Source: Nitrospirota bacterium
Lineage (GTDB): Bacteria; Nitrospirota; Thermodesulfovibrionia; UBA6902
Assembly (NCBI GenBank): GCA_003354025.1
Contig: PIVU01000003.1
Location: forward strand, 1 to 51,618
Reading direction: 5' to 3'
DNA length: 51,618 nucleotides
Made by a program: the position numbers and the translations under genes. The notes under the pieces are model-generated. The model saw nothing but the letters and a program-made list of their open reading frames with translations, was not told where the DNA came from and did no database searches. This document shows, piece after piece, positions 8,932 through 31,722 of this stretch. Each line of letters opens with the position of its first letter. The stretch's first letter is position 1.

Positions 8932-9960
8932 ATGAAACTTAGTGAACTGGCCAGGCATATAGGTGGTGACATTATAGGGGACCCGGAAATTGAGATTACG
9001 GGAGTATCAGGAATCACGGAAGCTCAAACTGGAGACATCTCCTATATTCACGACAAGAAATTCTTAAAAGATCCTTCTGCAATACGTGCGTCGGCAGTAA
9101 TAGTCAAAGAGGTTGCTGAAGGGTTGCCAATTAGCATGCTTGTGGTCAAAAACCCTCAGTATACTTATGCAAAAGCACTGGAAGTTTTCTACATAAAACC
9201 ACATGCATGTACGGGAATCAGCGATAGAGCTTTTATAGGAGACAATGTAACTCTGGGCAGCGAGGTCTCAGTCCATCATTTTGCATGCATACGCGACGGT
9301 GTCGTGATTGGTTCCGGGGGAACAATATTCCCGGGGGTGTTTATAGGTAAAGGAGTCACTATTGGTGATAATGCTCTTATCTATCCAAATGTCACGATCA
9401 GAGGGAATACAAAAATTGGAAATAATGTGACCATTCATTCCGGGACAGTCATCGGATCAGACGGGTTTGGATATGTCATGGAGCAGGGTATGCATTATAA
9501 GATACCGCAGGTCGGAGGTGTTGTTGTTGAAGACAACGTTGAAATCGGCTCCAATGTAACCATTGACAGGGGTACAACCGGAAACACAATAATAGGAACG
9601 GGTACAAAAATTGATAATCTTGTACAAATTGCCCATAATGTGAAAATAGGCAGCCACTCAATTATCGTTTCGCAGGTCGGAATCAGCGGAAGCGTTGATA
9701 TTGGAAACAGCGTAATACTGGCCGGTCAAGTGGGAGTCAGAGATCATATTACTATAGGCAATAATGCGATCATAGGCGCACAATCCGGAATAGGCGGCAA
9801 TATTCCGGAAGGCCAGGTTTATTCCGGAAGCCCTGCCATTCCGCACAAATCATGGTTAAGAGCTCAAAGCATCTATGCGAAATTGCCTGAGTACATCAAG
9901 CGCATACAGGCACTTGAAAGAAAATTGGATAACTTAACCGGAACTAAACAGGACACATGA
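8932..9960 (+). CDS. lpxD: UDP-3-O-acylglucosamine N-acyltransferase
   Basis: 342 aa. N-terminal MKLSELA..I.G domain followed by a long run of hexapeptide (left-handed beta-helix) repeats. Confidence 0.92.
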   Translation: MKLSELARHIGGDIIGDPEIEITGVSGITEAQTGDISYIHDKKFLKDPSAIRASAVIVKEVAEGLPISMLVVKNPQYTYAKALEVFYIKPHACTGISDRAFIGDNVTLGSEVSVHHFACIRDGVVIGSGGTIFPGVFIGKGVTIGDNALIYPNVTIRGNTKIGNNVTIHSGTVIGSDGFGYVMEQGMHYKIPQVGGVVVEDNVEIGSNVTIDRGTTGNTIIGTGTKIDNLVQIAHNVKIGSHSIIVSQVGISGSVDIGNSVILAGQVGVRDHITIGNNAIIGAQSGIGGNIPEGQVYSGSPAIPHKSWLRAQSIYAKLPEYIKRIQALERKLDNLTGTKQDT

Positions 9961-12121: not shown

Positions 12122-12179
12122 ACTCAGGCGGAATATACATCGGGCAATGCCATTGCAGATCCATGGAAGACAGGACAAT

Positions 12180-13109: not shown

Positions 13110-14231
13110 ATGACCCAAACAGCTCAAAACAAGACAATGATCCCCATGCTGGATCTCAAAGCTCAGTATCTCCCAATTAAAGAAGAGATTAAATCAGCAG
13201 TTAAGGAAATAATCGAGAGCGGCAGATTTATTCTCGGCAAAAATGTCGAATCATTTGAAAATGAAATTGCATCTTACCATAATGTCAGCGGAGCCGTTGG
13301 ACTTGCTTCCGGCACAGACGCTCTTCATCTCAGCCTCAATGCAATGGACATTAAAGAAGGGGACGAGGTAATAACAACTCCCTTTACATTTATTGCATCG
13401 GCAGAATCTATAGCATATGTCCATGCAACACCCGTATTTGTCGACATAGAGAAAAATACACTCAATATTGATGTCTCTAAAATAGAAGAAAAAATCACAG
13501 CAAAAACTAAAGCCATTGTAGTTGTACACCTTTTTGGACTTCCGGCAAACATGACAGAAATCATGGAGTTAGCAAAGAAGTACAATTTAAAAATCGTTGA
13601 AGACTGCGCCCAGGCTTTCGGTGCTAAGTATAAGGACAGGGCAGTCGGGAGTATAGGGGACTGCGGCTGTTACAGTTTTTACCCCAGTAAGAATCTGGGT
13701 GCCTATGGTGATGGCGGAATGATGATAACAAATAATTCAGGCATCCATGAAACGGTTAAGCTGCTGCGTAACCACGGGACAGTGGGCCCTTACCAGCACG
13801 GTTTCATCGGTTTTAACAGCAGACTGGATGAAATCCATGCTGCTATACTCAGGATTAAGTTAAGGCACATCGATCAGTACAATCAAAACAGAGGCAAAAT
13901 TGCTAAAATCTATTCATCAATTCTGGGTAATGCCGTGAAATGTCCCGTTGAGCTGGAAGACAGGAGTCATGTATATCACCAATACACAATCAGAACTCCG
14001 CAAAGGGACAAAATCCATGAAATTTTAAAGGAAAACTCGATAGCATCTGTTGTGTATTACCCTCTTTCACTTCACCTTCAGGAAGCCTTTGGCTACTTAG
14101 GGTACAAAGAGGGAGATTTTCCGGAATGCGAAGCTGCTTCCAACGAGGTACTGTCCCTTCCAATTTATCCGGAACTGGAACCTGAAAAAGCAGAATATAT
14201 TGCAAAAACAGTTCTAGAGGCGGTAAAGTAA
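13110..14231 (+). CDS. DegT/DnrJ/EryC1-family PLP sugar aminotransferase, GnnB-like
   Basis: 373 aa with GTDALHLSL, FYPSKNLGAYGDGG (PLP lysine) and LPIYPEL motifs typical of the family. Confidence 0.8.
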   Translation: MTQTAQNKTMIPMLDLKAQYLPIKEEIKSAVKEIIESGRFILGKNVESFENEIASYHNVSGAVGLASGTDALHLSLNAMDIKEGDEVITTPFTFIASAESIAYVHATPVFVDIEKNTLNIDVSKIEEKITAKTKAIVVVHLFGLPANMTEIMELAKKYNLKIVEDCAQAFGAKYKDRAVGSIGDCGCYSFYPSKNLGAYGDGGMMITNNSGIHETVKLLRNHGTVGPYQHGFIGFNSRLDEIHAAILRIKLRHIDQYNQNRGKIAKIYSSILGNAVKCPVELEDRSHVYHQYTIRTPQRDKIHEILKENSIASVVYYPLSLHLQEAFGYLGYKEGDFPECEAASNEVLSLPIYPELEPEKAEYIAKTVLEAVK

Positions 14232-14258
14232 CAACCCTGCGGCAGATTCACTGCGTGA

Positions 14259-15986
14259 CTATTCAGATACCTTCAGTACCTCACCGACACGCAGACGGGT
14301 TGTAGTTAAGTTATTAATTCTCTGAAGCTTCTTGGTATTAGTTTTAAACTTACGAGCAATCAGCCAGAGTGAGTCGCCCTTTTTAATCTTGTACTTTTTC
14401 CCGGGCAATAGCTTTTCCGCAGAAGCATAAACCTTCCGGCCAGTACTTCCCCTGAGAGGAACCTTGAGTTTCTGCCCTACACGTATAAAGTGCTTTTTAC
14501 GAATGTTGTTTGCCCGCACAATTCTACTTACTTTTGTACGGTATCTTTTCGCTATGAGCGAAAGGGTTTCCCCTTTTTTGACTCTATGATGCACATATGC
14601 ATTTTGAGGAAGCGTCCATTTCGGTATTTCCTTCAGATGCGCCAGTAACACATTCTTTTTGTCTTCAGGAATCTTAAGCTTATATTCAGTCGGAGGTGTC
14701 ACATGATGGCGAAGCTCGGGGTTCAGTGAAGTTAGTTCCTTAAAGGGCACTCCGATCTTCTCCGCAACTACTTTTAACTGCACCTGCTTTTCTATAGAAA
14801 CCGTTTCAAAAGACGAAGGGCTGTCCGGCTCACCCAGTTCAAATCCGTATTTCTCAGGGTCTTTTAAAATATGCAGTGTCGCAAGAAACCTGGGGACATA
14901 CCGGGCTGTTTCACGGGGAAGCTGCTGATACAGGTCCCAGAAGTTATCAAGATAGTTGATCTTCTGATTCCTGATCTGTCTTAAAACTCGTCCCTCTCCG
15001 CAATTATATGCTGCCAGCACCGTCATCCAGTCACCGAATATCTGGTGCAGTTCCTTCATATATGCAATTGCAGCAGCGGTTGCTTTCTCGGGATTTAACC
15101 TTAGATCTATCCATGTGTCCCTTTTTAATCCAAATTTATATCCCGTCGAAGGAATAAACTGCCACAAGCCGAGTGCCCTGGCACGGGACAACGCCCTTAT
15201 CTTAAAACCACTCTCAATCAATGGCAGCCAGGCAAGGTCCTGGGGTAGTCCAGCTTCTTTTAATTCAGCAGTAATCATATCCATAAATTTCCCGGACCGC
15301 TTATATGATTCAAGAAAAAATTTCCGTTCACGTCCCTGGAACAGCTTAATCTCCTTTTCAATATGCTTGTTCATTACCAGCGGGATCTCATTGTGATTTC
15401 CGTTCACAGCAGTATATCGTGATGCATAAATCTCCAATATCCTTTTGGAGATCATAAAACGAATGTCTTCTTTCTGCTGGATCAGTTCAGGACTACGTTC
15501 AGTATTTACTTTAAGAACAAGAGCGTATGCCTCATCCAGTGTTTTGATCGCCTGTTCCAGATTCCCTTCAGACCAGAAATCCTGAGAGGCATTACAAAAA
15601 TCAAGAGCAGTATCAAGAAAGTTCTGGTCCTTTTCTTTATTTTCAAGAAGTTCTTCCTCTTTATCTGCAATAGAATCCTCAGATTTTTCTACGACAGCCA
15701 GCTCCTGGGCTCCGGCATTGTCATCAGATAAGTTATTATCGTCAGCACAGGTTTTGGTATCAGTACAGTCCTCCACAATTACATCAGGAGAATTATTAAC
15801 ATCAGGGATAAGAGAAATATCATAATCAGACTTACTGACTCTCTCAGCAAGTACTTCTTCAGCAGGCTTGACTTCCAGATTTGCAGGCAAATCAATACGA
15901 TTTTTGTCATTAGAAACCCGAGTGCCCGTTGTGCTGCAACCGATTAATAATGTGACTAATAATAAAATTATATATCTATAAATCAT
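14259..15986 (-). CDS. Membrane-bound lytic murein transglycosylase (MltD-like) with two C-terminal LysM domains
   Basis: Lipoprotein signal LLIGC-S. SLT catalytic region LPLIESGFKIRALSRARALGLWQFIPSTG. Two LysM repeats (HRVKKGETLSLIAKRY..., YKIKKGDSLWLIARKF...). Confidence 0.85.
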   Translation of the reverse strand: MIYRYIILLLVTLLIGCSTTGTRVSNDKNRIDLPANLEVKPAEEVLAERVSKSDYDISLIPDVNNSPDVIVEDCTDTKTCADDNNLSDDNAGAQELAVVEKSEDSIADKEEELLENKEKDQNFLDTALDFCNASQDFWSEGNLEQAIKTLDEAYALVLKVNTERSPELIQQKEDIRFMISKRILEIYASRYTAVNGNHNEIPLVMNKHIEKEIKLFQGRERKFFLESYKRSGKFMDMITAELKEAGLPQDLAWLPLIESGFKIRALSRARALGLWQFIPSTGYKFGLKRDTWIDLRLNPEKATAAAIAYMKELHQIFGDWMTVLAAYNCGEGRVLRQIRNQKINYLDNFWDLYQQLPRETARYVPRFLATLHILKDPEKYGFELGEPDSPSSFETVSIEKQVQLKVVAEKIGVPFKELTSLNPELRHHVTPPTEYKLKIPEDKKNVLLAHLKEIPKWTLPQNAYVHHRVKKGETLSLIAKRYRTKVSRIVRANNIRKKHFIRVGQKLKVPLRGSTGRKVYASAEKLLPGKKYKIKKGDSLWLIARKFKTNTKKLQRINNLTTTRLRVGEVLKVSE

Positions 15987-19119: not shown

Positions 19120-19461
19120 TTAATGAATGCTTTCTCTATCCATGTCCTGCAGGAATTCATGATATGCAGTAGTCGGATCTAATATTTTCATTCCAACAGT
19201 CAAAGTTTCGTCATCAGGAGCAGTCCGCAAGTACCACTTCACTTCACAGTTTAGATATAGTATCTTGCCTGAGGGAGTTTGAAAACTAAGTGTGATTATC
19301 CTCTCGGGCACAAAATCTATTGAAGATCTGATTGCCGATGTCATTAAATACTCAATACCATCCTCGGATACATTGTCAATAAATCCACCACATGATTTGC
19401 CGCCTGATATAATGTTAGCGTTAAGATTACAAATCATTCTGTTTGACTGCCGATTGTCCAC
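19120..19461 (-). CDS. Stand-alone PilZ-domain protein (putative c-di-GMP receptor)
   Basis: 113 aa with RQSNR (RxxxR) and NVSEDG (D/N-x-S-x-x-G) at canonical spacing. GTG start with GAGG about 9 nt upstream. Confidence 0.7.
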   Translation of the reverse strand: MDNRQSNRMICNLNANIISGGKSCGGFIDNVSEDGIEYLMTSAIRSSIDFVPERIITLSFQTPSGKILYLNCEVKWYLRTAPDDETLTVGMKILDPTTAYHEFLQDMDRESIH

Positions 19462-24372: not shown

Positions 24373-25077
24373 TTACCAAACTGGACGATAGAATAAATTA
24401 AGGATTATCGCACGGATGATCCTGTACCCTACAATTGCAATACCCTTAACATCACCTGTGAACTTTGATTTGCCGGTACCCATACGATAACTAACAGGTA
24501 CTTCTTTTATTTTAAAATTGCACCTGACAGCCTTAACCTGCATTTCTATTGTCCATCCAAGGTTATCATGCATATCCAGAGTCAGCAGTTTATCAAACTT
24601 AACAGCCCTGAATGGCCCCACATCAGTATATTTGAATCCATAAAACAATCTCATCAATACAGTTGCCAGCCAGTTTCCGAAGCGCACCGGAACTCTAAGC
24701 GAGCCCTCTTCAGCTTCTCCCAACACTCTGGAGCCGCAGACAAGATCATAGCCTTCATTGACCATAGGTTCAACGAGCTTAATTATTTCAGTGGGGTAGT
24801 CACTATAATTACCATCAAGAAAAACAACGATATCCGGCTTGCTCATTTTCAGGTATTCAATACCCTTCAGGCACGGATAACCATAACCCTTTTTCGACTC
24901 GTTTAAAAGTGTTGCGCCCCACTCTTTTACAACCTGAGGAGTCCTGTCGGTGCTGCCGTTGTCAATCACGACAACTTCATCAATTAAATCCCCTGGGATG
25001 TCATTAAGAACAAGAGAAATCGTCTCTTCTTCATTCAACACCGGTATTATGGCAGCTATTGTTTTATTATTTAACAT
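24373..25077 (-). CDS. Small soluble-type family 2 glycosyltransferase (polyprenyl-phosphate/GtrB-like catalytic domain, no C-terminal TM helices)
   Basis: AAIIPVLNEEE..., VVVIDNGSTDRT and FLDGNYSD (DxD-like) motifs. 234 aa. Confidence 0.75.
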   Translation of the reverse strand: MLNNKTIAAIIPVLNEEETISLVLNDIPGDLIDEVVVIDNGSTDRTPQVVKEWGATLLNESKKGYGYPCLKGIEYLKMSKPDIVVFLDGNYSDYPTEIIKLVEPMVNEGYDLVCGSRVLGEAEEGSLRVPVRFGNWLATVLMRLFYGFKYTDVGPFRAVKFDKLLTLDMHDNLGWTIEMQVKAVRCNFKIKEVPVSYRMGTGKSKFTGDVKGIAIVGYRIIRAIILNLFYRPVW

Positions 25078-25243
25078 TTGACCTGTTTTGATCGTTTCTT
25101 CACTATATTATACTTTGGCTGGGAATAAAGATGTTTTTGCTACAATTATTACTATTCCACCTTATGCTAAAGGGACCTGCCTAGCTCCGGAAGTCTCTCT
25201 TTACTTGATTTTATTTTTTGCTCTATGGTATTTTTATAAGCCC

Positions 25244-27622
25244 ATGCATAGCAAATCCCGTTTATATTCAGCACTGCTTATTTTATCAATTGCAACTCTG
25301 ACATTGGAAGTGCTCCAGCTTCGTATCTTTGCATACAGCCTGTTGCGGTCTCTGGCACATGTTGTGGTCAGCATCGTTCTTATGGGAATTGGTATAGGGA
25401 GTATAAGTATTGCTCTTTCCTCCAAAATCAACCGAATCAAAGAAGAAACGCTGCTAACCTATTTATTCATGGGCTTTTCTATAAGCATAATGGTTACTCA
25501 TTTGATATTCAGCCATTATTTTCAATGGATTAACCAGGGATATAATTTCCCCAGATTATGGCTTTTCTCCATAATTTTCAGCGTACCATATATCTTTTTC
25601 GGCGCAATACTTACATATGTTTTCAAAAAATATGTACAGGATGTACCGAAACTCTACTCATTAAACCTGATCGGTTCAGGGTTAGGCTGTATAATACCGC
25701 TGATTGCATTACGTCCCCTTGGGGCAGAAAATTTAATCGTGCTGGTAGCTTTTCTGGGGGCGCTGTGCTCTCTGCTTTATTTTCGTGACATACCAAAAAA
25801 ACTTGGCCTGACTGCCGCAATTTTTACTATATTAATATTATTCAGCTTTCCATTCTCCGGCGATCTTTTTGATTTTAAATCAAAAGCCAATGGAGGCCTC
25901 GCAAAGATGAAAAATGCCACCAAAGTAAAAAGGGAATTTTCTAAATGGGATCCCCTGGGTAAAATCGAGGTTTATTCCTTTAATGATGATTACTCATATA
26001 TGTACATGCCGGAAGCCGTGCCTATCAAGGCAATGTTCCAGGACGGGGATGCAGGCTCCATGCTTGTTAATATTCGTAAAGACAAATATGATTATACAAA
26101 TTTCTTTGACGGCAGCATATTCAGTCTTGTTTATCAACTTCGCAACAACTCGGAAACACTGGCAATCGGACTGGGAGGTGGCCATGATATAATGAGGGCT
26201 TCCTACTTTAAAAGCAGCAGGGTAACCGGAGTGGAAATAAACAGCACTACCGTCAAACTTGTTAAAGAATCCTTCAAAGACTTCCTGGGAGACCCCTACG
26301 GCAAAGAGAATGTATCTATTGTTAATATGGACGGCAGATATTTTGTCAAAGACAATAAGAAAAATTACGACATTATACAGATAGCCGGCGCTGACACCGA
26401 CACTTCCAATTTGACTTCCGGCGCCCTTTCCGTTTCTGAAAACTACCTCTATACCTCTGAGGCATTCAAAGACTATTTAAAGTCTTTAAAGCCTGACGGT
26501 ATTCTTTCCCTGATACGTTTCGGCCCAAGAGAACCTATGATCATTATATCTACGGCCCTTAAGGCAATGAATGAAATGGGAATCGTTAATCCATACAATA
26601 ATTTCATAGTAGTAAAACAAGCTATTAACGTCAATGTTTTGATGAAAAAAGTGCCTTTCAGTATTGATGAGATCAATATCGTAAGAAAGTTTGCGGACCG
26701 AGTGACAATAAGCTCTCAAAACCTCAGACTTCCTGTAAATGATGTAATAGGGTATGAGGCAATTAGTGACTCAGAGATCATGTACCTGCCCCTTCCCGGC
26801 TGGAATGCCCAGAATTCATTTACGGAAATCATGAATTCAGCCAGGTCGAATGAGATATCAAAATACGTGGCCGGCTTCCCTCAAAATATCGGGCCCCTGA
26901 CAGATAATATGCCCTTCTTTTTCCAATATGAGAAGCCAGAAAATATTTTCAAGTACAAGAACTCTGTTATTTATAATTTATTCGTATCCATTGTACAAAT
27001 CTTAATATTCTCAGTATTGCTAATCTTTTTGCCTGTCTATATTTTAAAAAGAAAACATATGAATATGAGGTACAACTTTAATTATATTATTTATTTTTTC
27101 AGCATAGGCATAGGATTTATGCTCATAGAAATCGGTTTAATTCAAAAAGCAGTTCTATTCCTTGGTCATCCGACTTACTCTTTCATTGCAGTAGTATTTT
27201 CAATACTATTGTTTTCGGGGCTTGGAAGTCTTTTTTCAGCATATTTCAACAAGAACATTTTCAAACTTGTAGTTATTAGTTTAAGCGCCGTAATCATTTT
27301 AACTCTTCTTTACCTGTTTTACATGGATGATTTACTTAATGCCATTCTGCCCGAAAACATGTATTTAAGAATGGTCATTATAGGCCTGTTTTTATCGCCT
27401 ATAGGGTTTGCTATGGGCATACCATTACCCAAAGGTATACAGATGGTCAGTGCAAAAGACAGCAATTTTATACCTGTAGCCATGGCTGTGAATAGTGTCG
27501 CATCGGTATTAGCCGCAGCGTCATCCCTGCCGTTTGCCATGTTGTATGGCTTTACCGCAATATTTCTAACTGCGATAACAGCATATATGACTGGTTTAAT
27601 AACCATCGCAATCAAAAGATAA
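25244..27622 (+). CDS. Polytopic membrane protein with a central spermidine-synthase-like (class I SAM/dcSAM-binding) domain
   Basis: N-terminal multi-TM region (LLILSIATLTLEVLQLRIF...). Central LAIGLGGGHDIMRA...VTGVEINSTTV...NMDGRYFV...YDIIQIAGADT...LYTSEAFKDYLKSLKPDGILSL matches the SpeE fold motifs. Additional C-terminal TM helices follow. The long ORF starts at 25088, only 10 nt from the divergent GT2, so I prefer the ATG at 25244. Confidence 0.7.
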   Translation: MHSKSRLYSALLILSIATLTLEVLQLRIFAYSLLRSLAHVVVSIVLMGIGIGSISIALSSKINRIKEETLLTYLFMGFSISIMVTHLIFSHYFQWINQGYNFPRLWLFSIIFSVPYIFFGAILTYVFKKYVQDVPKLYSLNLIGSGLGCIIPLIALRPLGAENLIVLVAFLGALCSLLYFRDIPKKLGLTAAIFTILILFSFPFSGDLFDFKSKANGGLAKMKNATKVKREFSKWDPLGKIEVYSFNDDYSYMYMPEAVPIKAMFQDGDAGSMLVNIRKDKYDYTNFFDGSIFSLVYQLRNNSETLAIGLGGGHDIMRASYFKSSRVTGVEINSTTVKLVKESFKDFLGDPYGKENVSIVNMDGRYFVKDNKKNYDIIQIAGADTDTSNLTSGALSVSENYLYTSEAFKDYLKSLKPDGILSLIRFGPREPMIIISTALKAMNEMGIVNPYNNFIVVKQAINVNVLMKKVPFSIDEINIVRKFADRVTISSQNLRLPVNDVIGYEAISDSEIMYLPLPGWNAQNSFTEIMNSARSNEISKYVAGFPQNIGPLTDNMPFFFQYEKPENIFKYKNSVIYNLFVSIVQILIFSVLLIFLPVYILKRKHMNMRYNFNYIIYFFSIGIGFMLIEIGLIQKAVLFLGHPTYSFIAVVFSILLFSGLGSLFSAYFNKNIFKLVVISLSAVIILTLLYLFYMDDLLNAILPENMYLRMVIIGLFLSPIGFAMGIPLPKGIQMVSAKDSNFIPVAMAVNSVASVLAAASSLPFAMLYGFTAIFLTAITAYMTGLITIAIKR

Positions 27623-27882: not shown

Positions 27883-28446
27883 TTAGTCCAGGCAATTCCA
27901 GAAACGCCGAAGACTACAATCAGTCATTTCATGATAATGTTTGTATTGCGCTTCTGCTTTCTCCACCATCCCCAGTTTCTCATAGACAACCGCCCTATCC
28001 CATAAGGAATAGGGGTGAGACGGATCAACTGCAAGAACTTTTTCATACTGGTTAAGGGCTTCCTGAAAGCGGCCTGCTTCTTTATATATGTATGCTATAT
28101 CATAAAGAGCATTTACATTTTGCGGGTCTAGTTTTAAAGCCTTAGCATACTGCGTAAGGGCTTTGCTGTGAAGTCCCATTTCTCTGTATATGTAGCCCAG
28201 GTCATAGTTTCCAAATGGGTGCTCAGGAAATTGCTTCAGAAGATTAATATAGGCATTCTCGGCCCCTTCAAGGTTCCCCATTTCCTTATACATCAATCCC
28301 ATCTGATAATTTGCATAGGCATTTCCAGGATCAGCCTGTACAGCCCTTGCAAATGCTTCAATTGCATTATCTTTGGAACCCATTGTCTGGTAAAGAACTG
28401 CTGTAAGGGTGTGCCTATGAGAAAAGGTGAAAAGAGATACTACCAA
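27883..28446 (-). CDS. TPR-repeat protein (about 4 TPRs); the N-terminal signal/anchor sequence is only reachable through a homopolymer frameshift
   Basis: Repeats of the type AIEAFARAVQADPGNAYANYQMGLMY.... In frame upstream of the TTG at 28446 lies KKNIVILIVICLLL with no start codon. An ATG at 28496 is one frame off, across an A10 run. Confidence 0.7.
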   Translation of the reverse strand: MVVSLFTFSHRHTLTAVLYQTMGSKDNAIEAFARAVQADPGNAYANYQMGLMYKEMGNLEGAENAYINLLKQFPEHPFGNYDLGYIYREMGLHSKALTQYAKALKLDPQNVNALYDIAYIYKEAGRFQEALNQYEKVLAVDPSHPYSLWDRAVVYEKLGMVEKAEAQYKHYHEMTDCSLRRFWNCLD

Positions 28447-28508
28447 AAGCAGACAAATTACTATAAGGATTACGATGTTTTTTTTTTAATATGCATTCTC
28501 AGAAAATA

Positions 28509-28551
28509 ACAGGCGCCTTCATTTATTGTTTCATAAAATGAAAGCGCCTGT
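28509..28551 (-). terminator. Intrinsic terminator-like hairpin between the barrel gene and the TPR gene
   Basis: Minus-strand RNA reads ACAGGCGCUUUCAUUU-(11 nt loop)-AAAUGAAGGCGCCUGU followed by UAUUUUCU. The 16-bp stem has a single U-G wobble in the minus sense, which would be a C-A mismatch in the plus sense. Confidence 0.65.
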
Positions 28552-28583
28552 CCATAAACTTAACAAAGTATGCTGTTTATATA

Positions 28584-29573
28584 TTAGTGACTGTATGCAA
28601 GAGCAACTGCATATGTTTCACCAAGCGCAGCATTTTTAGTATGCTTCAAACCAAAAAAGTCTGATATGTCCGTATTATAAGAAAATACCAGCTGCAGCCC
28701 TGGCTTTAATGTAAAAGCCAGGTCTACCCCCCCACTAAAGGTATCCTGCTCAAGGGCAAGAGAATCTTTAATAACTACCGGTTTACCATGAGCTTTTGAT
28801 ACGCTGCCCTGGTCATAGAATAACTGCGCCATTACGTCTGAAACTTCTGCATTACCGACTGAATCAGAATAGGCAAACTGTCCCCTGATCGATAACCATG
28901 GAGTTGCATTGTAACCGCCACTCAATGCAACTTTAAACTGATCAGACGGTTTAAACGTAGCATCGTTGGGAAGCTGTTCATTTTCAAACCGGTAAACATA
29001 TGAAATATCAAGTACTGAGTACCCCCAGTTGAATCCCCTACCAAATTTTAGTTTTGAAGTTAAATCATACTGTCCCTCTCCAAGGGGTTGATGCGTTGCA
29101 GGATTTGCATAGTCATATGCTTCAGGAATTTTCACACCAAATTCAATTGACGATAACACTCCCGTGCCGGCAATATTATCAATCAATTTATGCCTAAGTC
29201 CAACATTTATGTCACCAACTCCGCTGGGACCCCTTTTATCGGTTTCTATCATTACATCATGAGACTTTACCCAGTTCCATGGGATTGAAAAAATACCAGT
29301 AATCTTATCTGTAATACCATACTCAAGATAGTAGGTTACTGCAGTGCTTGTAAATTCTTCCGAGTCAACCCTGTGGACTTCAGTATCCAAACCCACTATA
29401 GCACCAGCGCTATCATGCTGCAAAGTAGTAAATTTCTGAGTGGTCTGATAATGACTTAAACTAAGCTGATTATAAGAATGCCCTTTTGCCTGGGTCCATG
29501 CTGCCATAGCAGCATCTGTTATAAATAAACATACTGCTGTTAATAACAACGATACGACTACTCCTTTTTTCAT
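28584..29573 (-). CDS. Outer-membrane beta-barrel protein (MetA/phenol-degradation-like transporter type)
   Basis: Signal peptide ...FITDAAMA-AW. Alternating hydrophobic/aromatic beta-strand pattern throughout. AAGGAG 8 nt upstream of the ATG at 29573 (MKKGVV). Confidence 0.65.
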   Translation of the reverse strand: MKKGVVVSLLLTAVCLFITDAAMAAWTQAKGHSYNQLSLSHYQTTQKFTTLQHDSAGAIVGLDTEVHRVDSEEFTSTAVTYYLEYGITDKITGIFSIPWNWVKSHDVMIETDKRGPSGVGDINVGLRHKLIDNIAGTGVLSSIEFGVKIPEAYDYANPATHQPLGEGQYDLTSKLKFGRGFNWGYSVLDISYVYRFENEQLPNDATFKPSDQFKVALSGGYNATPWLSIRGQFAYSDSVGNAEVSDVMAQLFYDQGSVSKAHGKPVVIKDSLALEQDTFSGGVDLAFTLKPGLQLVFSYNTDISDFFGLKHTKNAALGETYAVALAYSH

Positions 29574-29621
29574 AAATAACACTCCTTTTAATAGAATTTA
29601 CTTAAACATCGTTTTTATATT

Positions 29622-31142
29622 TCATGCAGCAATAACATCTTCTGTGTTTCTTTTAGAACTAAACAGGCGAACAATTCGATTTGAGGCACTGCCTCCTATG
29701 ATTACCTGGAATATGGATAAGAAAGCAACATAGAAGTATCCCACCTGGAACATCATAAGGAACGGGATTGATATATAAATCTTATTTATAAATGCAAAGT
29801 ATATGTTAAAAGTAAAATATATGCCCAGCAGCAATTCAACGATCACCAGCATATTAATTTCACCCTTATATTTCTTGCCATGCCACCTGTCCTTCTTTTT
29901 CTCAATACTATATTTTGGAGTACGTTTAAATTCCGTCTCTCTATTAAACAGCGCTTCAAGAACTGCTTTTGAATTATTAACTGAAAGACCTATTCCGAGG
30001 GACATTAACATAGGCAGGTAAAGAAGTCTCGACTTCCAATCCTTGTAAGCCTCTTTCTGTGAAGCAATATAAAAGAAAGATATACCAACAGTAGCAACAA
30101 GCAAAAACGGTACATCAGCTACGACCATCCGAAACCATCCTATATTTATCCTTGCAACCATGGACGGATAAATTAAAACAGACAACACGAGCATAAGAAA
30201 GTAAGAAATATTATTTGTGAGGTGAAAAAAAGCCTCAACTTTAACTTTTAATGGCAGGTCGCTCTTTAAAATCTGAGGGAGAAGTTTCTTGGCAGTTTGT
30301 ATCGAACCTTTTGCCCATCTGTTCTGCTGGCTCTTAAAGCCGTTGATCTCAACAGGGATTTCAGATGGTGACAGTTCATCTTTAAGGTATACGAATTTCC
30401 AGCCCTTTAACTGAGACCTGTAACTTAAATCCAGGTCCTCTGTAAGGGTGTCATGCTCCCACCCTCCGGCTGTTTCTATAGCTTCTTTCCTCCAGATACC
30501 CGCTGTTCCATTAAAATTAAAGAACCTGCCGGACCAGTTTCTGGCAGTATGCTCGATAACAAAATGCCCATCCAGCATAATGGCCTGTATCTTCGTTAAA
30601 AAAGAATATTTTCTATTTAAATAACTCCATCTGGTCTGGACCATTCCAACTTTCTTGTCAACAAAAAAATCAATAGTCTTCTTGAAAATGTCCCTTTGAG
30701 GAATAAAATCCGCATCAAACACTGCAATGAATGCACCTTTAGCAGTCTTAAGACCATTCTGAAGCGCACCTCCCTTAAATCCCACCCTGTTTTCACGATG
30801 AATGTAACTGATATCAAAACCCTTCCCACTGAGTTCCTCTACGCACTTCCTGGCAACGTCTTTTGTTTCGTCAGTTGAATCATCAAGAACCTGTATATCC
30901 ATAAGTTCTTTAGGGTAGTCAACATCACATGCAGCATTCAGCAACCTGCGAGTAACATACATTTCATTATAAATCGGGAGTTGTATTGTAATACGCGGCA
31001 GGCTTTCCATCTTGCCCTGCGGTACCGGCTTATTCTTTTTATTCTTATAATACAGATACACCATGTAGTAGCGGTGGGATGCATATATGAAAACTGTCAC
31101 TAAAATACAGAAATATACTGCAAGAAATAAATATAGTAGCAC
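29622..31142 (-). CDS. Processive family 2 glycosyltransferase/polysaccharide synthase (cellulose-synthase-like, CslA/NodC-like) with N- and C-terminal TM helices
   Basis: D, DxD, TED and QxxRW signature: VLDDSTDET, VFDADFIP, TLTEDLDLSY, QQNRWAKGS. One N-terminal and several C-terminal TM segments. GTG start with AAGGA upstream. Confidence 0.82.
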   Translation of the reverse strand: MLLYLFLAVYFCILVTVFIYASHRYYMVYLYYKNKKNKPVPQGKMESLPRITIQLPIYNEMYVTRRLLNAACDVDYPKELMDIQVLDDSTDETKDVARKCVEELSGKGFDISYIHRENRVGFKGGALQNGLKTAKGAFIAVFDADFIPQRDIFKKTIDFFVDKKVGMVQTRWSYLNRKYSFLTKIQAIMLDGHFVIEHTARNWSGRFFNFNGTAGIWRKEAIETAGGWEHDTLTEDLDLSYRSQLKGWKFVYLKDELSPSEIPVEINGFKSQQNRWAKGSIQTAKKLLPQILKSDLPLKVKVEAFFHLTNNISYFLMLVLSVLIYPSMVARINIGWFRMVVADVPFLLVATVGISFFYIASQKEAYKDWKSRLLYLPMLMSLGIGLSVNNSKAVLEALFNRETEFKRTPKYSIEKKKDRWHGKKYKGEINMLVIVELLLGIYFTFNIYFAFINKIYISIPFLMMFQVGYFYVAFLSIFQVIIGGSASNRIVRLFSSKRNTEDVIAA

Positions 31143-31377
31143 TGAAATGTCCTTTAATTAAAAAAATAGAGTCAAGAGAAAAAATCCGTGAAAAAGTATA
31201 ACACACTCTTTATTATAGGGGCAATTAGAAATCCTTATACAACGATTATCACCATAATACGCAACCTGAACATGTGTATATTCACTGATTTGGCATCAAA
31301 ACAATAAACAGAGTTTATCGAAGCCTGAGCATTTAATTATTTCTTTTAATTTCAATAATAATTGGAAATATAGTAAA

Positions 31378-31722
31378 ATGGATACAATGAGTCAGCAAAT
31401 TGATAATTCTGATCCCAACTCTCCGTTAAACTGGACATTAACTCTGAAAGCTCTTGCTGATGAGAATCGGCTCCAGATAATCCATGAACTTCTTAAGCAG
31501 GAAGCTTCCGTACAGGACCTGTCAAACACCTTGAACATTAAGATGTATAACATATCAAAACATTTGAAAATACTGGAAAATGGGGGGCTGGTAAAGAAGA
31601 GGAAAGAAGGCGTCCATAGAATATATCATATTACAGACACCTTCATGTCCCGCCTTTCTGAGGACAATCAAGTGCTTGATTTAGGGTGCTGCAAGTTCAT
31701 GTTCGGCAGTTCATCCAAATAG
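31378..31722 (+). CDS. ArsR/SmtB-family winged-helix transcriptional regulator
   Basis: LKALADENRLQIIHELLKQEASVQDLSNTLNIKMYNISKHLKILENGGLVKKRKEG is a typical ArsR HTH. Confidence 0.85.
   Translation: MDTMSQQIDNSDPNSPLNWTLTLKALADENRLQIIHELLKQEASVQDLSNTLNIKMYNISKHLKILENGGLVKKRKEGVHRIYHITDTFMSRLSEDNQVLDLGCCKFMFGSSSK

Follow-up and report, generated by a model that had tools for sequence, protein, structure and literature searches.

The locus and its synthase and barrel genes

Three consecutive genes on the minus strand, encoding a family 2 glycosyltransferase (GT2), an outer-membrane beta-barrel protein, and a tetratricopeptide repeat (TPR) protein, lie within a 51,618-nucleotide stretch of DNA from a Nitrospirota bacterium. 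This stretch, here called the window, is the entire contig C452 of a Thermodesulfovibrionia genome bin of 4.17 Mb in 642 contigs. Gene presence, folds, homologies, synteny, co-occurrence, and the conservation of a reading-frame offset were computed. The initial annotation of the window had read the three genes as a minimal synthase-dependent exopolysaccharide system, and the three open reading frames (ORFs) were confirmed where it had placed them. They are genuine genes and not chance ORFs, since each has many orthologues (at least 8000 scored matches for the GT2 and 224 for the barrel) and the gene order is conserved. The features of the core are listed here with the evidence for each in parentheses; the Xag names refer to the xag cluster of Xanthomonas, with which the locus is compared below.

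29622 to 31142, minus strand: XagB-type membrane GT2 synthase of 506 amino acids (ORF, Pfam, motifs, hydropathy, BcsA alignment)
28584 to 29582, minus strand: XagA-type outer-membrane barrel, 332 amino acids from a GTG, with a conserved Met start at 29573 (32-orthologue alignment, AlphaFold2, Foldseek, hhalign)
28508 to 28552, minus strand: 17-bp stem-loop followed by UAUUUUCU, between the barrel stop codon and the TPR start (RNA fold)
28478 to 28496, minus strand: ATG CAT ATT followed by A10, the start being one base out of the TPR frame (sequence)
27883 to 28485, minus strand: TPR protein, predicted at about 200 amino acids after a one-base slip (Pfam TPR families, hydropathy, synteny)

The GT2 scored above the Pfam cut-offs for Glyco_tranf_2_3, Glyco_trans_2_3, and Glycos_transf_2. 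Its GT-A domain carries DDS at residue 87, DAD at 143, TED at 234, and QQNRW at 272, and hydropathy analysis revealed one N-terminal and at least five C-terminal hydrophobic segments, in agreement with the motifs and multiple transmembrane (TM) helices first described for it. Searches placed BcsA as the closest solved relative (E 3.5e-24 with the single sequence, E 4e-28 with the profile). The alignment with BcsA of Cereibacter sphaeroides, with an hhalign probability of 99.5, is confined to residues 45 to 316, which comprise the catalytic domain and interface helix. The GT2 also has an invariant loop, F405-K-R-T-P-K410, flanked on each side by a pair of TM segments, at a position that we take to match the FxVTxK gating loop of BcsA, and the order TM-TM-amphipathic-FKRTPK-TM-TM presumably mirrors TM5-TM6-IF3-FxVTxK-TM7-TM8 of that enzyme. 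A Pfam scan found no PilZ domain in the GT2, and the cluster has no BcsB gene. A free-standing PilZ-domain protein of 113 amino acids is encoded at 19120 to 19461 (minus strand) in an adjoining fatty-acid cassette, 10 kb from the GT2.

The GT2 is the sole strong PF13632-type synthase in this genome. The names of the cluster members behind its nearest 50%-identity representatives are generic, and one orthologue is named beta-monoglucosyldiacylglycerol synthase. In another genome (G146, contig C79, positions 14015 to 15471) the GT2 gene is split and carries an in-frame TAG.

Translation of the barrel gene probably begins at the conserved ATG at 29573 rather than at the GTG. In the alignment of 32 orthologues, the signal peptide ends in AMA and is followed by an invariant mature N terminus, AWTQAKGH; the loop motifs KIPEAY and GDGQYD are also invariant. 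The AlphaFold2 model built on these orthologues (pLDDT 83.9, pTM 0.82) shows an N-terminal signal-peptide helix followed by 12 strands, which bears out the signal-peptide-bearing barrel of the initial annotation, and a two-helix insert at residues 249 to 274. Searches of the PDB with the single sequence and with the profile gave no useful match. No Pfam family matched even at an E value of 10, apart from OMP_b-brl at 0.066, and PF13557 (the phenol/MetA-pathway channel family) was unmatched; a few orthologues carry weak precomputed matches to it.

The best Foldseek match of the barrel model was the COG4313 channel 4rl8 (E 3.5e-13; TM-score of 0.62 on the query and 0.76 on the target), followed by FapF (5o68). 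The top 20 matches consisted of COG4313 and FapF structures, and no polysaccharide porin stood near the top. The model thus resembles a 12-stranded COG4313/FapF-like barrel, unlike AlgE or BcsC, and the parallel with AlgE, BcsC, and PgaA that had been drawn for this protein did not hold. The likeness to COG4313 Pput2725 (4rl8) and FapF (5o65, 5o68) extends to the 12 strands, with target TM-scores of 0.66 to 0.77. The window barrel differs from them in sequence (11 to 14% identity), in the lack of a PF13557 match, in its extra helical loop inserts and family-specific AWTQAKGH N terminus, and in its partners, which are glycosyltransferases and not aromatic-degradation or Fap genes.

Start of the TPR gene

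The TPR protein scored above cut-off for TPR_1, TPR_2, TPR_8, TPR_11, and other Pfam TPR families. It has one N-terminal TM or signal-anchor segment followed by about four to five repeats, and no lipobox. The hydrophobic anchor, NIVILIVICLLLVVSLFTF, lies in the TPR frame, which is open from 28485, yet no in-frame start codon precedes it. The only start upstream of the anchor is the ATG at 28496 to 28494, which is one base out of frame across the A10 run (28478 to 28487). If the mRNA gained a single A, or the ribosome shifted by -1, this start would be joined to the TPR frame and yield MHIKKKNIVILIV... The signal or anchor predicted for this protein is therefore encoded, but it is joined to a start only by a one-base slip across A10. 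Independent assemblies of four runs of one sample, all of them DNA-like, have the identical A10 run with zero indels. RNA runs were sought for a test of slippage, and none of them holds the locus of the window or of a relative.

The same arrangement, a start codon, six nucleotides, and a run of A9 or A10, was found in 25 of 47 related loci (ATG in 23, GTG in 2), with the start always in the +1 frame; L001, counted among the 25, should be disregarded because its assembly has further frameshifts. An in-frame start is present in 21 of the 47, all of them with runs of A8 or shorter or with none, and in L045, the one locus left, both an in-frame start and an A run are absent. Every run of at least A9 at the TPR start is out of frame (47 loci; window and loci L003-L043). 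The orthologues with an in-frame start begin with M..KK and a hydrophobic segment. Since the first in-frame start codons downstream lie at scattered positions in the offset loci, an anchorless internal start is unlikely as a rule. Such a one-directional, length-dependent pattern would not be expected from random homopolymer errors. RNA polymerase slips on A runs of nine or more, and from the sequences we infer a programmed one-base slippage at the A9 or A10 run of the TPR start, conserved across many species. The barrel and TPR genes at 9579 to 11271 of L001/L048, from one long-contig bin, are broken into several frames, probably by assembly indels.

A 105-nucleotide stretch ahead of the TPR frame (28486 to 28590) contains the hairpin and folds at -31.4 kcal/mol (z -5.9 versus shuffles), and a crude scan found a comparable hairpin and T-tract in 26 of 46 related loci. 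The stem-loop and U-rich tract look like an intrinsic terminator or attenuator. Because they precede the TPR start, the TPR gene and the genes downstream are probably expressed below the level of the GT2 and the barrel. Only the Nitrospirota form of the system has the TPR gene.

Gene neighborhood and relatives in other phyla

The contexts of the orthologues revealed a conserved order that is longer than the three genes: GT2, barrel, TPR, a polytopic protein of 650 to 700 amino acids, a single-TM peptide of 47 to 50 amino acids, and often a GT2 of about 235 amino acids. The GT2 adjoins the barrel in 48/48 Nitrospirota loci, and the TPR gene lies downstream of the barrel in 44/44 loci with enough sequence. 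The polytopic protein follows in 38 of 40 loci, the small GT2 is found within 6.5 kb downstream in 22 of 33, and an ArsR regulator is divergent and adjacent upstream in 31 of the 43 loci with enough upstream sequence. Median identity to the window proteins is 79% for the GT2, 47% for the barrel, and 56% for the TPR protein; for the polytopic protein, measured against the L001 orthologue, it is 54%. In the sampled phylum, strong barrel matches and GT2 orthologues (at least 47% identity) occur in the same 8 of 301 genomes and nowhere else: all six sampled from the family of the window, one of the two sampled elsewhere in its order, and a single genome of a further family. These data support the GT2, barrel, and TPR protein as a functional unit, the conserved core of an operon, as had been supposed from the window. 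The system is an accessory trait of one lineage and not a core membrane-lipid function.

The polytopic protein has the fold of a GT-C glycosyltransferase. The model of a 696-amino-acid orthologue (pLDDT 74.5, pTM 0.81) gave a Foldseek top 15 made up entirely of GT-C enzymes (ArnT, STT3, AglB, ALG9, PglB, Pmt, and AftD), with modest TM-scores of 0.35 to 0.49. Neither this protein nor the 47-amino-acid peptide had a Pfam match at E 10, and PDB searches of the 696-amino-acid protein by single sequence and by profile gave nothing useful. The peptide gene always adjoins the GT-C gene, and its product is probably a subunit of the GT-C enzyme; we take it to recall helpers of the GacJ or DPM3 type. 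The genome of the window carries the GT-C and peptide genes on contigs C538 and C293, flanked by unrelated genes, the GT-C gene being split between 2103 to 2717 of C538 and 1 to 1643 of C293, with contig ends that overlap by about 118 bases. It is preceded there by an opposite-strand gene resembling a multiheme cytochrome and followed by the peptide gene and a B12-binding radical SAM gene. With a GT-C enzyme, a peptide, and a small GT2 that is related to dolichyl phosphate (Dol-P) hexose synthases added in the relatives, the description of the system as minimal and free of modifying genes had to be given up.

The other features of the window around the core are as follows.

24373 to 25077, minus strand: small soluble GT2 of 234 amino acids, resembling Dol-P- or polyprenyl-P-hexose synthases (NCBIfam, synteny)
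25088 to 27622, plus strand: polytopic protein of 844 amino acids with a spermidine-synthase-like domain (Pfam)
31378 to 31722, plus strand: ArsR-family regulator, divergent from the GT2 (Pfam HTH_5)
31195 to 31224, minus strand: promoter-like site TTGCCC-18-TATACT with TG upstream, about 50 nucleotides ahead of the GT2 start (consensus scan alone, weak evidence)

The small GT2 scored best in NCBIfam with AglJ (100.6 bits, cut-off 325) and a Dol-P-hexose transferase (81 bits, cut-off 375), below every family cut-off, and hydropathy analysis found no TM segment in it. An opposite-strand gene separates it from the core in this window. That gene encodes the 844-amino-acid protein, which stands where relatives have the GT-C and peptide genes. 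This protein neighbors the cluster in only 3 of 48 loci and is probably outside the system. It was considered as a diverged copy of the GT-C enzyme, which was rejected when BLASTP against the 696-amino-acid protein showed no similarity. Genes of this type also lie at 13626 to 16010 of L007 and at 12147 to 14540 of L024, where two paralogous GT-C genes flank it.

The ArsR-family neighbor is a candidate regulator on the basis of its sequence and position. A gene matching TIGR04282 ("arsenosugar biosynthesis") above cut-off lies just upstream of the GT2 in L002 (7205 to 7843), and a cluster in Pseudoalteromonas (L064, 14216 to 15703) ends with TIGR04282- and TIGR04283-like genes, below cut-off. 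A link to arsenic was considered from the ArsR neighbor and these genes, and nothing was found in them that ties the glycan genes to arsenic chemistry.

Related clusters were found beyond the lineage of the window, among them clusters in Gammaproteobacteria and, at a greater distance, in Alphaproteobacteria. In another Nitrospirota family (f29, genome G231), a barrel, a GT2 (47% identical), a GT87-family GT-C enzyme, and a DedA protein are encoded in a row. Barrels with a mature N terminus of AWTQ[AP]KGH occur in Aurantimonas, Novacetimonas, Gluconacetobacter, and a Rickettsiales bin, and matched the Nitrospirota barrels with an hhalign probability of 99.6. Barrels of this alphaproteobacterial type lie 1 to 3 kb from a GT2, often beside it, in 6/6 loci (L050-L055). 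In the loci examined in detail, the GT2 has an N-terminal MshEN domain, which binds cyclic di-GMP (c-di-GMP), and the cluster also encodes a polytopic protein that weakly matches PMT_2, an enzyme of the beta-mannanase family GH113, and a large secreted protein with a C-terminal anchor; that of Aurantimonas adds a REC-GGDEF gene. This c-di-GMP-linked cluster of L050-L055 may correspond to the rhizobial glucomannan (gmsA) type.

A tblastn search with the GT2 on plasmid and chromid records found Pseudoalteromonas sp. Bsw20308, which encodes, in order, a 285-amino-acid barrel homologue, a GT2 (40% identical), a GT87 protein, a 784-amino-acid flavo/FeS protein, a small GT2 (42% identical to that of the window), a DUF2064 protein, and another GT2. 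The 285-residue hypothetical protein matched the window barrel family with an hhalign probability of 97.9. The order in Agarilytica rhodophyticola is barrel, GT2, a GT-C enzyme of the MptA_B/GT87 family, and a 785-amino-acid flavoprotein, and its GT2 is 43% identical to that of the window over 487 amino acids, EFxRTPK loop included.

These gammaproteobacterial clusters led to a name. Relatives of the Bsw20308 barrel are called "protein XagA" in JGI annotations, from a KEGG Orthology (KO) assignment, and one of these proteins (P0494) matched the Nitrospirota barrel profile with an hhalign probability of 96.9 (E 1.6e-10). When gammaproteobacterial XagA- and XagB-like proteins were used as queries in the genome of the window, they matched just the adjacent barrel (E 7e-10) and GT2 (E 4e-125). 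The window barrel is a remote homologue of the proteins that JGI names XagA. The GT-C family was also considered as a homologue of the alphaproteobacterial polytopic protein or of the GT87-type XagC-like protein; this was rejected, there being no sequence similarity.

The initial annotation missed a named relative, Xag, for which KEGG has entries (XagA, K20326; XagB, K20327; PMC9040811). The xagABCD cluster of Xanthomonas was described by Tao et al. in 2010 (as cited in PMC3528676 and PMC3609779). In X. campestris it directs an uncharacterized polysaccharide needed for biofilm, the xag-dependent biofilm is dispersed by the beta-1,4-mannanase ManA, and xagA transcription is controlled by Clp with c-di-GMP (PMC3528676). 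The elevated biofilm formation of an X. oryzae pv. oryzicola rpfG mutant falls when either xagA or xagB is deleted (PMC3609779). Stalk-forming iron oxidizers share bcsB-xagB-xagC-xagD-like genes, the XagB-like protein being auto-annotated as a monoglucosyldiacylglycerol synthase (PMC4643136). Our literature search found no paper on the folds or roles of XagA or XagC, nor on a Nitrospirota version of the system.

A probable Xag-type system and its alternatives

We read the locus as the core of a Nitrospirota variant of a Xag-type, synthase-dependent glycan secretion system, with a probability of about 60%. The homology to xag, in which deletions of xagA and xagB lower biofilm, supports the reading as a synthase-dependent exopolysaccharide system with an outer-membrane partner that the three genes had first been given. 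The part of that reading which was based on the motifs fared less well. The DD, DAD, TED, and QxxRW set does not separate polymer synthases from lipid glucosyltransferases, and ceramide glucosyltransferase also has D1 to D3 and (Q/R)xxRW.

The mechanism that follows includes proposals for the polymer product, for export by the barrel, for what the TPR protein does, for slippage, and for the GT-C acceptor. The XagB-like GT2 in the inner membrane would build a polymer at the cytoplasmic face, with a nucleotide sugar as donor, and pass the chain across this membrane through its own C-terminal helices, as in BcsA. The XagA-like 12-stranded barrel would be the outer-membrane partner, most likely an exit pore for a single glycan chain, and the membrane-anchored TPR protein may bridge or scaffold the two in the periplasm. 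The TPR protein would be made only by transcripts or ribosomes that read through the hairpin and slip one base on A10, and so be kept substoichiometric. The small GT2 could make a polyprenyl-P-sugar that the GT-C enzyme, together with the 47-amino-acid peptide, would use to branch, modify, or prime the glycan in the periplasm; the genes for these last two would have moved to another locus in this genome. As to the backbone, the dispersal of Xanthomonas xag aggregates by mannanase and the GH113 gene of the alphaproteobacterial clusters give, by analogy, a hint of a beta-1,4-mannan or glucomannan-like polymer.

Several points weigh against this reading, in addition to the shared motif set. The similarity of the GT2 to BcsA ends at about residue 316, so that the translocation channel beyond it is putative. 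The best barrel match, COG4313, is thought to import small hydrophobic molecules, and we know of no polysaccharide porin with 12 strands. A barrel for small-molecule uptake was what the initial annotation had set against its own proposal, and the COG4313 match touches on this; the other of the two nearest folds, FapF, is a secretion channel. The GT-C arm is unlinked from the core in this genome, where searches with the gammaproteobacterial proteins found no GT87 XagC-like homologue and, for the XagD-position protein, weak partial matches to unrelated FeS and flavoproteins and no homologue. The link to xag rests on the KO-based JGI name and on cluster architecture, not on the sequences of Xanthomonas XagA and XagB. 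In another phylum (L063, 7001 to 8518), a GT2 of 47 to 49% identity has no barrel, TPR, or GT-C gene nearby, which makes the GT2 family wider than the Xag-type module. Automatic annotation routinely names XagB-like proteins beta-monoglucosyldiacylglycerol synthases, so a lipid acceptor is possible. Finally, to our knowledge no product has been characterized for any Xag-type system, and the genetic evidence for a matrix polysaccharide comes from Xanthomonas alone. The neighbors of the L063 GT2 include large secreted proteins with no Pfam match, of which one has a CxxCH heme motif and one an RR-containing, Tat-like N terminus, both noted by eye.

The nearest described system is xagABCD. Both have a membrane GT2 of about 500 amino acids (that of the window being 40 to 43% identical to the enzymes of xag-like clusters) adjoining a signal-peptide barrel of about 290 to 330 amino acids from the same remote family, and both are accompanied by a polytopic enzyme of GT-C fold and a small GT2. 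The differences are that the GT2 precedes the barrel in Nitrospirota, whereas the barrel comes first in xag; that the Nitrospirota form adds the TM-anchored TPR protein and the 47-amino-acid peptide; that its GT-C enzyme belongs to another family, with no similarity to the GT87-type XagC-like protein; that it has no homologue of the 785-amino-acid flavo/FeS protein found at the xagD position in gammaproteobacteria; and that an ArsR-type neighbor stands in place of control by Clp and diffusible signal factor (DSF).

With BcsA-BcsB-BcsC(-BcsZ), the system shares the GT-A motifs, the interface helix, the FxxTxK gating-loop-like motif between TM pairs, and a general design with TPR repeats and an outer-membrane component of its own. 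It lacks PilZ and BcsB, and its C-terminal TM region cannot be aligned. In BcsC a barrel of 16 strands is fused to an extended TPR region, whereas the window has a 12-stranded barrel and a separate TPR protein anchored in the inner membrane; no hydrolase gene lies within the window. The split between TPR protein and porin recalls AlgK and AlgE of the Alg8/Alg44-AlgK-AlgE system, and the pairing of a GT2 synthase with an outer-membrane conduit is common to Alg, PgaCD-PgaA, and PelF-PelB. AlgE has 18 strands, and PgaA and PelB have 16. AlgK is an outer-membrane lipoprotein, in contrast to the TM-anchored TPR protein of the window with no lipobox, and the window system has no c-di-GMP receptor. 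NfrA of E. coli is a large TPR-barrel fusion. The NfrB-NfrA-YbcH system (PMC8669469, PMC8669472) likewise pairs an MshEN-containing GT2 with an outer-membrane partner; the alphaproteobacterial relatives share MshEN, and the GT2 of the window does not have it.

The combination of a GT2 related to Dol-P- or undecaprenyl-P-hexose synthases with a GT-C enzyme, whose top fold match is ArnT, is also found in the three-component glycosylation systems GtrB/GtrA/Gtr-GT-C, ArnC/ArnT, CsbB/GtcA/YfhO, and GacI/GacJ/GacL. Here, however, no flippase gene was recognized, the small GT2 of the window has no TM segment, and the arm goes together with a BcsA-like synthase and a barrel, which has not been reported for the three-component systems.

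Among the alternatives, the one that survives best is that the product is a glycolipid or lipoglycan, although we consider this unlikely. The GT2 would then glycosylate a membrane lipid, in the manner of MgdA on diacylglycerol, the GT-C enzyme would extend this anchor in the periplasm with polyprenyl-P-sugars as donors, as actinobacterial PimE and MptA/B do, and the COG4313-like barrel would deliver the product into or across the outer membrane. We know of no report of an outer-membrane barrel, TPR, or GT-C partner for cyanobacterial MgdA (Sll1377). Compared by description only, MgdA is a GT2 of similar length in which, much as here, TM helices lie on either side of the catalytic domain (PMC3916417), and the name beta-monoglucosyldiacylglycerol synthase given to one orthologue and to the XagB-like genes of iron oxidizers (PMC4643136) points the same way. 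So do the GT87/MptA_B family of the GT-C partners elsewhere, which acts on glycolipids, the DedA gene beside the cluster in G231, and the nearest barrel fold, a channel for hydrophobic molecules. The GT2 family profile also picks up ceramide glucosyltransferase, but at an E value of 9e-6, so that the GT2 is far nearer BcsA (4e-28), the BcsA-type FxxTxK loop of which it keeps. The MshEN domain and GH113 hydrolase of the alphaproteobacterial relatives are hallmarks of polymer systems, and Xanthomonas xag mutants lose an aggregative matrix that mannanase dissolves (PMC3528676). A housekeeping membrane-lipid enzyme of the class was rejected, the system being confined to one family of the class plus sporadic others.

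It is also conceivable, though quite improbable, that the product of the GT2 and GT-C enzymes stays in the envelope as a periplasmic or cell-bound glycan, similar to osmoregulated glucans, or is placed on a protein, perhaps on the conserved barrel loops; the barrel would then serve as acceptor or anchor and not as a pore. The invariant barrel motifs KIPEAY, GDGQYD, and AWTQAKGH suggest a specific interaction and not a simple pore, there are protein glycosyltransferases among the GT-C enzymes, and the rhizobial glucomannan reportedly stays on one cell pole. No acceptor sequon or known anchor was identified, however; the conservation across phyla of an outer-membrane barrel adjoining the synthase is most simply explained as an exit route, and the xag-dependent matrix works between cells (PMC3609779, PMC3528676). 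That the genes are coincidental neighbors, with a barrel that imports small hydrophobic compounds (as the weak PF13557 matches of some orthologues and the COG4313 fold might suggest), an unrelated TPR protein, and a GT2 that alone matters, is highly improbable given the unbroken adjacency and perfect co-occurrence described above, the pairing of barrel and GT2 in four other lineages despite rearranged order, and the identical phenotypes of xagA and xagB deletions (PMC3609779).

If the locus is indeed of the Xag type, it extends what is known of glycan secretion. In the four well-studied synthase-dependent systems, cellulose, poly-N-acetylglucosamine, alginate, and Pel leave through large porins of 16 to 18 strands with TPR modules, and the window barrel is smaller. 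The xag cluster has been known genetically since 2010 with its parts uncharacterized, and this analysis gives those parts testable identities: XagA as a COG4313/FapF-like 12-stranded barrel and XagB as a BcsA-like synthase, with a recurrent GT-C partner and a small GT2. We tentatively suggest, as a rather doubtful generalization, that Xag-type systems form a phylum-spanning secretion class with a 12-stranded exit barrel, periplasmic decoration or priming by a GT-C enzyme, and, in Nitrospirota, a TPR adaptor dosed by slippage. The module spans plant pathogens, marine heterotrophs, uncultured sulfur-cycling Nitrospirota, and possibly stalk-forming iron oxidizers (PMC4643136). Pseudoalteromonas sp. 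Bsw20308 and Agarilytica rhodophyticola are harmless carriers that can be cultured for work on the polymer and the pore. For the Nitrospirota themselves, the A9/A10 offset at the TPR start, if it is true slippage, would be a clean natural case of slippage-dependent expression in an operon that is neither mobile nor viral.

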